DNA from: Tannerellaceae bacterium | GTDB taxonomy: Bacteria > Bacteroidota > Bacteroidia > Bacteroidales > Tannerellaceae | DNA length: 64,000 nucleotides | Assembly (NCBI GenBank): GCA_031259845.1 | Contig: JAIRKZ010000100.1 | Span: 809-64,808, forward strand | Direction of reading: 5' to 3' | In this document: positions 10,488 through 11,241 of the stretch, piece after piece | Layout: the number at the start of each line of letters is the position of its first letter | How positions within the stretch are numbered: position 1 is the stretch's first letter | Notes under the pieces: generated by a model | Database searches by the model: none | Seen by the model: the letters and a program-made list of their open reading frames with translations, nothing else | Told to the model about the DNA's origin: nothing | Program-made: the position numbers and the translations under genes

Positions 10488-11084
10488 ATGAAAAAGATTG
10501 CTTTTTACGGAAAAGGGGGGATTGGGAAATCTACAACCCAACAGAACACAGCAGCCGCGATGGCTCATTTCCACGGTCAGAAAGTATTTATTCACGGTTG
10601 CGATCCTAAAGCCGATTCTACCCGTATGATTTTAGGGGGTATGAATCAGAAAACGATTATGGATACGCTGCGTGATGATGGAGCGGAGTTAGTTACTGCC
10701 GAGAAAGTGGTGAGCGCCGGATTTGGAAATATTCTGTGTTGCGAATCCGGCGGGCCGGAACCAGGCGTGGGATGTGCGGGCCGCGGCGTTATCACGGCTA
10801 TTGATTTGATGGAAAACCAAGGCGCTTATGACAGTGATTTGAATTATGTTTTCTATGATGTATTGGGCGACGTTGTTTGTGGCGGGTTTGCCATGCCTAT
10901 CCGGGATGGCAAAGCACAGGAAGTGTACATTAATCACCTGCATTTTTCTTCCCGTAGCACGGACATAGCTTTACTGCGCTGTGATGCTCTATACATACTG
11001 CATGTACCACAGGAAGTCCGATCTCCTGACGGCGGGTTATTCCACTCGCCAAAACATCTCAAGTCTACTTTTTCCATTCTTTAA
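10488..11084 (+). pseudogene. nifH: truncated nitrogenase iron protein, AnfH-like (cluster II NifH); homology only 10488-10931 (148 codons)
   Basis: [71 protein letters not shown]; the last 50 codons are read-through into the antisense strand of an IS66 remnant. Confidence 0.92.
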
Positions 11085-11241
11085 CAGGGATAATTCCACC
11101 TCAAGAGCTGTCAAACGAGCCGCCAACTCCTTTAACATCTCATACGCTGACTTGGGAATAGTTACCATTTCTTCCATAGGGCAAATGTTATACATTTCAT
11201 TGAAATAACATGCGACTTTTTTTTGATACCTGAATAGTTAC
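10932..11241 (-). mobile_element. decayed IS66-family (ISBst12-like) element, left end plus transposase fragments
   Basis: Minus strand starts GTAACTATTCAG at 11241 (IS66-type end); ATG 11177 [36 protein letters not shown]; in another frame [30 protein letters not shown] (RRQ..P...EH....CxxC zinc-finger region); internal deletion between them. Confidence 0.75.

Follow-up and report, generated by a model that had tools for sequence, protein, structure and literature searches.

A truncated Fe-only nitrogenase Fe-protein gene joined to the interior of an IS66 transposase gene: a probable cluster relic in a Bacteroidales genome

An Fe-protein gene that breaks off halfway and runs on into a transposase gene read backwards raises three questions: (i) which nitrogenase the gene belonged to, (ii) how it came to be cut, and (iii) whether the lineage that carries it once fixed nitrogen and later ceased to do so. 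Such a locus is found on the plus strand of the window, as the whole 64,000-nucleotide stretch of DNA analyzed here is called, which forms part of a metagenome-assembled genome (MAG) of 3.66 Mb in 204 contigs with a completeness of 87.4%. The locus very probably represents the non-functional remains of an Fe-only nitrogenase (anf) cluster of the Bacteroidales, made by a deletion that joined anfH to the interior of an IS66 element. IS-linked nif pseudogenes and eroded nif clusters appear to be commonplace in other phyla and represent a common route of accessory-pathway loss. The present case is of this known kind and involves no new mechanism; it is an otherwise ordinary pseudogene and a useful marker of loss. 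It shares with the IS-associated nif pseudogenes known elsewhere a nitrogenase gene broken near a mobile element, but differs from them in that the nitrogenase is of the Fe-only type, the host is a termite-gut member of the Bacteroidales, and the break appears to be a deletion with both ends in genes rather than an IS insertion. New here are the position of the relic at the edge of a large insert, the lack of AnfH-type genes in congeners, and the existence of a second, independent anf relic.

The anfH stump spans positions 10488–10931 of the plus strand (codons 1–148) and was delimited with Pfam and NCBIfam profiles, a ranking of PDB entries, homologs, and a tree. Its translation runs through 148 codons without a stop and contains the P-loop GKGGIGKS, switch I, and switch II as well as both [4Fe-4S] cysteines, which lie in CAGRG and VCGGF contexts (DVVCGG is present); the family match ends at QEVYI. 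The Pfam model Fer4_NifH (PF00142) is matched over positions 1–146 of 271 with an E-value of 1.4e-66 and 225 bits, and the nifH model TIGR01287 over positions 1–146 of 275 with 252.7 bits, which is below the full-length equivalog cut-off of 394.35. The homologs are 274 aa in length, and the C-terminal half of the protein (about 126 residues) is missing from the stump. Compared with the full-length anfH of its closest relative in the tree (G023), the stump is 95% identical at the amino acid and 81% at the nucleotide level; the DNA homology stops at 10930/10931, where the G023 gene goes on with the codons for V-V-S-G-E-M-M-A. The open frame of the window continues instead through a 50-codon tail and stop (10932–11087, plus strand, with the stop at 11085–11087), which is the antisense of an IS remnant. 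The resulting chimeric ORF encodes 198 aa, and a Pfam scan gave no family match beyond its residue 148. A preliminary description, made from the letters of the DNA, had reported 148 stop-free NifH codons with the P-loop and both cysteines, ending at QEVYI, and had taken the gene to be amputated at codon 148; the translation and the Pfam match bear out the former, and the continuation of the G023 gene past the point where the homology ends bears out the latter.

Judged by its sequence, the stump is a fragment of an AnfH-type Fe protein, a label that derives from its clade in the tree, the operon context of its relatives, and the PDB ranking. Among PDB entries, 7qqa and 8oie, presumably the AnfH structures of A. 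vinelandii and R. capsulatus, match best, with 252 bits and an ungapped alignment over residues 2–148; methanogen NifH ranks next, followed by A. vinelandii NifH (201 bits) and VnfH (196 bits). The two AnfH proteins are dimeric, have the full length of 274–275 aa, and share two signature motifs with the stump, whereas the stump stops mid-fold. Within a collection of 5.8 billion proteins, the closest full-length homologs measure 274 aa and are 91–95% identical over the 148 residues. Their named sources are Dysgonomonadaceae MAGs, Dysgonomonas, Bacteroidales bacterium Barb6, Tannerella, and Paludibacter propionicigenes, and these Bacteroidales AnfH proteins are followed in similarity by those of Chloroherpeton and Paenibacillus.

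In a maximum likelihood tree of 148 shared columns, the stump falls in a clade with 100/100 support together with operon-verified AnfH proteins, its sister being G023 (94/79), and a long branch parts this clade from that of the Bacteroidales NifH proteins (67–73% identity). The tree was built without canonical cluster I or VnfH sequences, and the name AnfH for the clade rests on operon context and PDB ranking. The AnfH of P. propionicigenes WB4, encoded in the arrangement anfH-glnB-glnB-anfDGK, is 92% identical to the stump and belongs to the same 100/100 clade. The earlier assignment to AnfH or cluster II is upheld by the tree, the top-ranked PDB entries, and the operons of the nearest relatives, and codons 1–148 group with AnfH rather than with clusters IV–V.

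The operon context was examined for seven relatives, two of whose contigs end before anfK or anfO. In G023, anfH is followed by two PII genes, anfD, anfG, anfK, a 156-aa ORF, a Nim/PNPOx-like gene, and anfO. The NCBIfam equivalog models score 1015 bits for ANFD, 180 bits for anfG, and 914 bits for anfK, while anfO attains 125.0 bits, just under its cut-off of 129.15. The same gene order is found behind the homologs P0009, P0014, and P0006, two of which have nifB, a homocitrate-synthase-like gene, and a GAF/sigma-54 activator nearby, and also behind anfH in three genomes of the family (G225, G339, and G364). For Paludibacter, the order anfH-glnB-glnB-anfDGK has been described and linked to the abundant “cluster II” anfH phylotypes of termite guts (Inoue et al. 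2015, PMC4356463).

The DNA that follows the stump carries, on the minus strand, two pieces of an IS66-family transposase, both recovered by tblastn with the protein P0003. The outer piece (11067–11177) corresponds to residues 1–37, the N-terminal coiled coil, and is 76% identical to P0003 (E 5e-11); the inner piece (10933–11058) corresponds to residues 102–143, the zinc-finger region, and is 64% identical over 42 aa (E 4e-11). The two lie 8 nt apart in different frames, and the interval between them (11059–11066, minus strand) is the scar of an internal deletion, with 184 nt (transposase residues 38–101) missing relative to the contig L066 and the frame shifted. Outside the coding pieces, positions 11178–11242 of the minus strand hold the 5′ untranslated part and the outer (left) terminus of the element, where homology to L066 starts at a shared TGTAACTAYTCAGGTA. 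This terminus, TGTAAC at 11242–11237 when read on the minus strand, is 15 nt away from the stop codon at which the neighboring gene ends (11257). IS66-family ends begin with GTAA.

L066 is a metagenome contig that encodes P0003, which was found by an exhaustive phmmer search and is the one informative relative of the remnant. P0003 matches DDE_Tnp_IS66 (PF03050) above the curated cut-off, and zf-IS66 and DUF6444 below threshold. This single-ORF IS66 type with a DUF6444-like N-terminus shares about 75–80% DNA similarity with the remnant from the terminus through 143 codons. In contrast to it, the remnant is devoid of (i) the DDE domain, which begins at residue 170 of P0003 and lies past the end of the remnant at residue 143, (ii) the far end of the element, (iii) the 184 internal bases, and (iv) one zinc-finger cysteine, the motif CPCCGKK of P0003 reading CPCYGKK (one Cys to Tyr). 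From these similarities, the remnant is assigned to the IS66 family; it cannot transpose. The relative is itself split, with a 298-aa and a 134-aa ORF at L066 593–1936 of a 2.7-kb contig, and neither the genome nor its relatives yielded an intact copy of this IS type for reference. Two IS66 elements that the genome does contain (C96 and C97) are of a different subtype and did not help to interpret the remnant. A 52-aa minus-strand ORF at 11037–11195 had no Pfam, NCBIfam, or plasmid match and none in 200 genomes of the order.

The homology to L066 ends at 10931/10932, and at most 1 nt is common to the anfH and IS66 homologies. The junction is interior to both genes and brings anfH codon 148 against codon 143 of a transposase gene in the opposite orientation. 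A join inside both genes with an overlap of at most 1 nt argues for an illegitimate deletion, and against both a transposition joint and homologous exchange. The L066 alignment places the junction at 10931/10932 and the outer end of the IS at about 11241, as first described, and the two P0003 pieces on the minus strand agree with the initial reading of a fusion to a decayed antisense IS66 transposase. That a deletion ran from inside the one gene to inside the other had likewise been proposed, and it is implied by homologies that both end within genes.

A series of events that could have produced this arrangement is as follows. At an earlier time, an IS66 element would have inserted 15 nt past the end of the last gene in a polysaccharide utilization locus (PUL), where its outer end is intact; it also bears the separate 184-nt internal deletion. 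A single illegitimate deletion would have joined codon 148 of anfH to codon 143 of the opposite transposase gene, and the same event would have taken away the remainder of anfH and, from the IS, its catalytic part together with its far end. By analogy with the intact clusters, the lost downstream genes would have been two PII genes, anfD, anfG, anfK, two small genes, and anfO. The proposal that the deletion took away the rest of the operon holds in that the 3′ part of anfH is gone, while the operon content that it presupposes comes from this analogy. The chimeric product, with half of an Fe-protein fold and no catalytic partner, would contribute nothing to nitrogen fixation.

The promoter of the gene, though not its activator, was probably kept, as far as motif matching can tell. 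A predicted sigma-54-type promoter, TGGCAT-N5-TTGA, lies at 10435–10449 of the plus strand, 39 nt upstream of the ATG, and is the sole match in the 64-kb window on either strand. The layout TGGCAY-N5-TTGA also occurs upstream of intact anfH genes in G023 and L049; the stump thus resembles the Bacteroidales anf clusters in its promoter layout but keeps only residues 1–148 of 274. The −12 element of the predicted promoter reads TTGA, not TTGC. Beyond this motif, the upstream regions of different anfH genes do not align with one another, and the leader in front of the stump has no BLAST-level similarity to the regions upstream of intact anfH genes. The genome contains rpoN; an AnfA ortholog was not found in it, the best AnfA-like tblastn match being 39% identical. 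Should an activator fire it, the retained putative promoter may still drive transcription of the 198-aa chimeric ORF.

The surroundings of the stump bear on its history. On the left, an M23-family peptidase gene (8302–10194, plus strand, PF01551; the coordinates are those of the longest ORF, and the true start is probably internal) forms a conserved flank, with nucleotide identities of 92% to G015 (up to 10219), 85% to G020, and 70% to G017. Homology to G015 ends at 10219/10220, 25 nt past the M23 stop, and an AT-rich, lineage-specific leader of 268 nt (10220–10487, plus strand, GC 0.35) leads from there to the stump. On the right, a minus-strand PUL (11257–38649) adjoins the IS remnant with its last gene. 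This gene, taken from the ORF list at 11257–12465 (minus strand), has a weak Acyl_transf_3 match, is adjoined by a GH9 gene, and finds congener matches of only 64–71%. Homology to congeners resumes at 38815, just upstream of pgm (G020, 89% nucleotide identity), and the pgm promoter region and phosphoglucomutase-like gene, the latter named by sequence recognition, constitute the conserved right flank (38815–40630, plus strand).

Positions 10220–38814 therefore delimit a lineage-specific segment of 28.6 kb that consists of the leader, the anfH stump, the IS remnant, and the 27-kb PUL. When the M23-to-pgm interval was compared across relatives, as had been suggested at the outset, four congeners (G020, G017, G009, and G004) proved to be without the segment, with pgm directly behind M23 at a distance of about 95–130 nt. 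Other congeners have different genes after M23, and the interval looks like a rearrangement hot spot. No relative carries an intact anf cluster at the M23–pgm site, and in the stretches fetched around the intact clusters of the family, neither M23 nor pgm nor a PUL gene of the window is a neighbor. Among 21 congeners, 19 have no NifH-family match at all; of the other two, one encodes a NifH of 73% identity and the second carries a pair of NifH-like genes at 55%, which leaves 0 of 21 with an AnfH-type gene. A GC-rich hairpin, GGCATC-GCG-GATGCC, sits at 10224–10240 just beyond the end of the G015 homology; it may be a terminator and is part of the lineage-specific DNA, not of the M23 gene. An 11-bp direct repeat, AACCGTACCAA, occurs at 10281–10291 and at about 38703–38713, 60–110 nt inside the insert ends. 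With about 0.02 chance matches of this kind expected between two 300-nt regions, it was considered as a boundary repeat of the insert and set aside as a chance occurrence, being short and not at the boundaries.

Two histories are compatible with this setting. It is rather probable that an anf cluster was once intact and working in the lineage, whether acquired or resident at the hot spot, and was later destroyed. The other history, in which anfH and IS66 were already joined in a donor and the truncated pair arrived as passive cargo at the edge of the PUL segment, so that the lineage never had a working Fe-only nitrogenase, is unlikely but deserves serious weight. It accounts for the location of the stump inside a segment that is absent from the four congeners with adjacent M23 and pgm, for the end of the G015 homology at 10219, and for the lack of AnfH-type genes in all 21 congeners. 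It also fits an IS remnant that abuts the PUL by its true end and has no copy elsewhere in the genome, in the genus, or in 200 genomes of the order. The GC3 of the stump (0.47), on the other hand, is like that of the core flanks (0.48) and unlike that of the PUL (0.40), an argument that is weak given a range of 0.34 to 0.68 for AnfH genes elsewhere; the IS remnant has a GC3 of 0.34. These values hint weakly that stump and PUL have different histories. Import is further disfavored by the lack of an integrase or other obvious mobility gene in the insert, as judged from the ORF list. Absence of the segment from congeners and of AnfH-type genes from all 21 does not, by itself, separate loss in place from import of a dead copy.

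The preliminary description had concluded that the lineage lost or relocated nitrogen fixation. This stands as regards the missing anf and nif partners, and goes too far as regards fixation at this very site, since the stump lies in a segment without counterpart in G020, G017, G009, and G004 and an AnfH-type gene is found in none of the 21 congeners. A more specific version of loss, in which a termite-gut Dysgonomonadaceae lineage had a working anf cluster between M23 and pgm that was replaced, in a swap at a recombination hot spot and through an IS66-associated deletion, by a glycan-foraging PUL, is doubtful. If true, it would, together with the relic in G337 described below, point to repeated and recent loss of Fe-only nitrogenase in the family, perhaps tracking shifts of the host diet to nitrogen-richer food. 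Termite metagenomics reports nitrogenase reads to be much scarcer in termites that feed on soil or cultivate fungi (PMC9137090).

Irrespective of which history applies, the organism as assembled is not diazotrophic. No second NifH was found in the genome, in which the only further matches are ParA/MinD-like P-loop proteins, and neither a match to the NifD/K/E/N family (PF00148) nor one to nifB was obtained. All twelve proteins encoded by an intact Bacteroidales anf cluster, used as tblastn queries against the whole genome, recovered the stump and no PII pair, anfD, anfG, anfK, or anfO. The remaining matches are generic paralogs: LeuA-like genes, a single PII gene, and sigma-54 activators, whose identity does not exceed 45% over the AAA+ core and is 39% over the longest alignment. 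The unassembled part of an 87%-complete MAG could hold an intact cluster, which bounds each of these absences. Within that limit, the whole-assembly search for nif and anf genes that had been recommended yielded none besides the stump, and the absence of partner genes speaks for loss rather than relocation.

The stump could still be the leftover copy of a partial duplication or relocation, with a complete anf cluster hidden in the unassembled 13% of the genome. A completeness of 87.4% in 204 contigs leaves room for this, and assembly or binning often misses genes that are repeated or duplicated. Such a cluster is nonetheless improbable: no piece of anfD, anfG, anfK, anfO, or nifB lies on any contig, and the Logan contigs of the sample contain, at a likeness of at least 90%, no intact gene that continues past 10931. 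The sole other piece in the same run (X1) is a distant nifH-like contig, with the caveat that contigs can drop rare variants.

Whether the junction is an artefact of assembly was examined with a separate set of contigs. One public run matches the stretch, a termite-gut metagenome that is probably the source sample, and its Logan contigs were produced by a different assembler, probably from the same sample; they provide a test of the assembler and not an independent sample. One such contig (3598 nt, depth 13.8) covers 10832–11700 without differences and spans the junction with 100 nt on the anfH side and 769 nt on the IS side. A second (11104 nt, depth 10.8) extends from upstream of M23 across the M23/leader boundary to 10830. 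An A/G bubble at 10831 separates the two contigs, with the alleles at a ratio of about 1:1 (depth 5.6 each), and encodes the nonsynonymous change D115G. Its equal depths indicate two co-occurring variants, so both carry the truncation. That 10931/10932 is an assembly chimera of DNA from two organisms is conceivable for a metagenomic source, with nifH-like sequences of other organisms present in a sister sample (run X3). It is very unlikely given that a de Bruijn contig of another assembler crosses the junction without mismatch, that depth is similar on either side (10.8 and 13.8), that at most 1 nt is common at the join, leaving no repeat to cause a misjoin, and that both outer flanks are syntenic with congeners. 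An exact-protein look-up found no identical product elsewhere, and the exact junction pattern had no match in JGI metagenome contigs. Runs X2 and X3 contain next to none of the stretch, and their short nifH-like contigs belong to other organisms.

Divergence and residue conservation give loose indications of the age of the truncation. Between the stump and the G023 gene, dN is 0.033 and dS is saturated, which means that through almost its entire history the sequence evolved in the manner of a working gene. Synonymous divergence was tried as a test of recent transfer between this genome (G000) and G023 and abandoned, dS being saturated in anfH and in all housekeeping genes. Among 119 homologs, the stump departs from the majority residue at 12 positions, none of them at a conserved column and each with a residue found in other homologs. 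A relative-rate test gave 3 versus 1 unique amino acid changes (p = 0.6) and has no power either way. A recent loss, as initially proposed on the strength of the clean 5′ part, is consistent with the lack of stops, frameshifts, deviant conserved residues, and significant acceleration; the data fit a recent truncation with little power and do not date it. The IS appears to have been dead for some time, given its 184-nt deletion and Cys-to-Tyr change. An undecayed stump would also fit continued selection, with no evident function for half an Fe protein. That the 198-aa ORF is a working protein under selection, such as a truncated P-loop ATPase or a [4Fe-4S] carrier, is highly improbable despite its open frame, retained start and promoter motif, and 148 codons without a changed conserved residue, as half of the fold is missing, the tail is transposase antisense without a family match, no identical product is on record elsewhere, and the nonsynonymous D115G segregates at about 1:1 in the sample.

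A second anf relic occurs in a genome of another genus of the family (G337, 94% complete), at L060 1501–2081, which equals G337:C238:8644–9224, and also at L082. There, anfH has a TAA at codon 19, and a deletion has fused its codon 105 to anfK residues 135–224. The AnfH part is 94% identical in amino acids to that of the window, and the relic is the only nitrogenase-like sequence found in that genome. Both relics keep the 5′ part of an AnfH-type gene, but the joint in G337 is without an IS and the lesions are independent. Because the lesions differ, anf clusters must have decayed at least twice in the family. Intact AnfH-type genes were found in four of the 183 family genomes surveyed (G023, G225, G339, and G364). 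Vertical descent has been argued for these genes, with loss in many lineages, such that the patchy occurrence of anf and nif in the Bacteroidales reflects repeated loss (Inoue et al. 2015, PMC4356463). Two independent anf relics next to four intact clusters in 183 genomes constitute physical evidence for this idea.

The stump also carries a warning for surveys of nitrogenase genes. With a score of 225 bits against the Pfam model and both cluster cysteines, it would lead read- or HMM-based nifH counts in termite-gut metagenomes to list a non-diazotroph among the diazotrophs; a filter for anfD/K or for a full-length score excludes it. In an alignment with G023, the stump ends before the GEMMA- and YAANN-coding sites and keeps the IGKGGIGK and DVVCGGFA sites. 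The sites of the Zehr nifH2/nifH3 and PolR reverse primers presumably lie in the GEMMA/YAANN region, and such pairs should not amplify the stump, whereas a primer pair of the IGK3/DVV type would register it as nifH, as would counts based on reads or HMMs.

Genes of a third NifH-like class, with 54–55% identity and frames of about 295–335 aa, are widespread across the family and distinct from both AnfH and NifH. They occur in G013 (C44 and C116), G225, G336, G344, G348, G368, and others, and presumably represent a nitrogenase-like “group IV” paralog.
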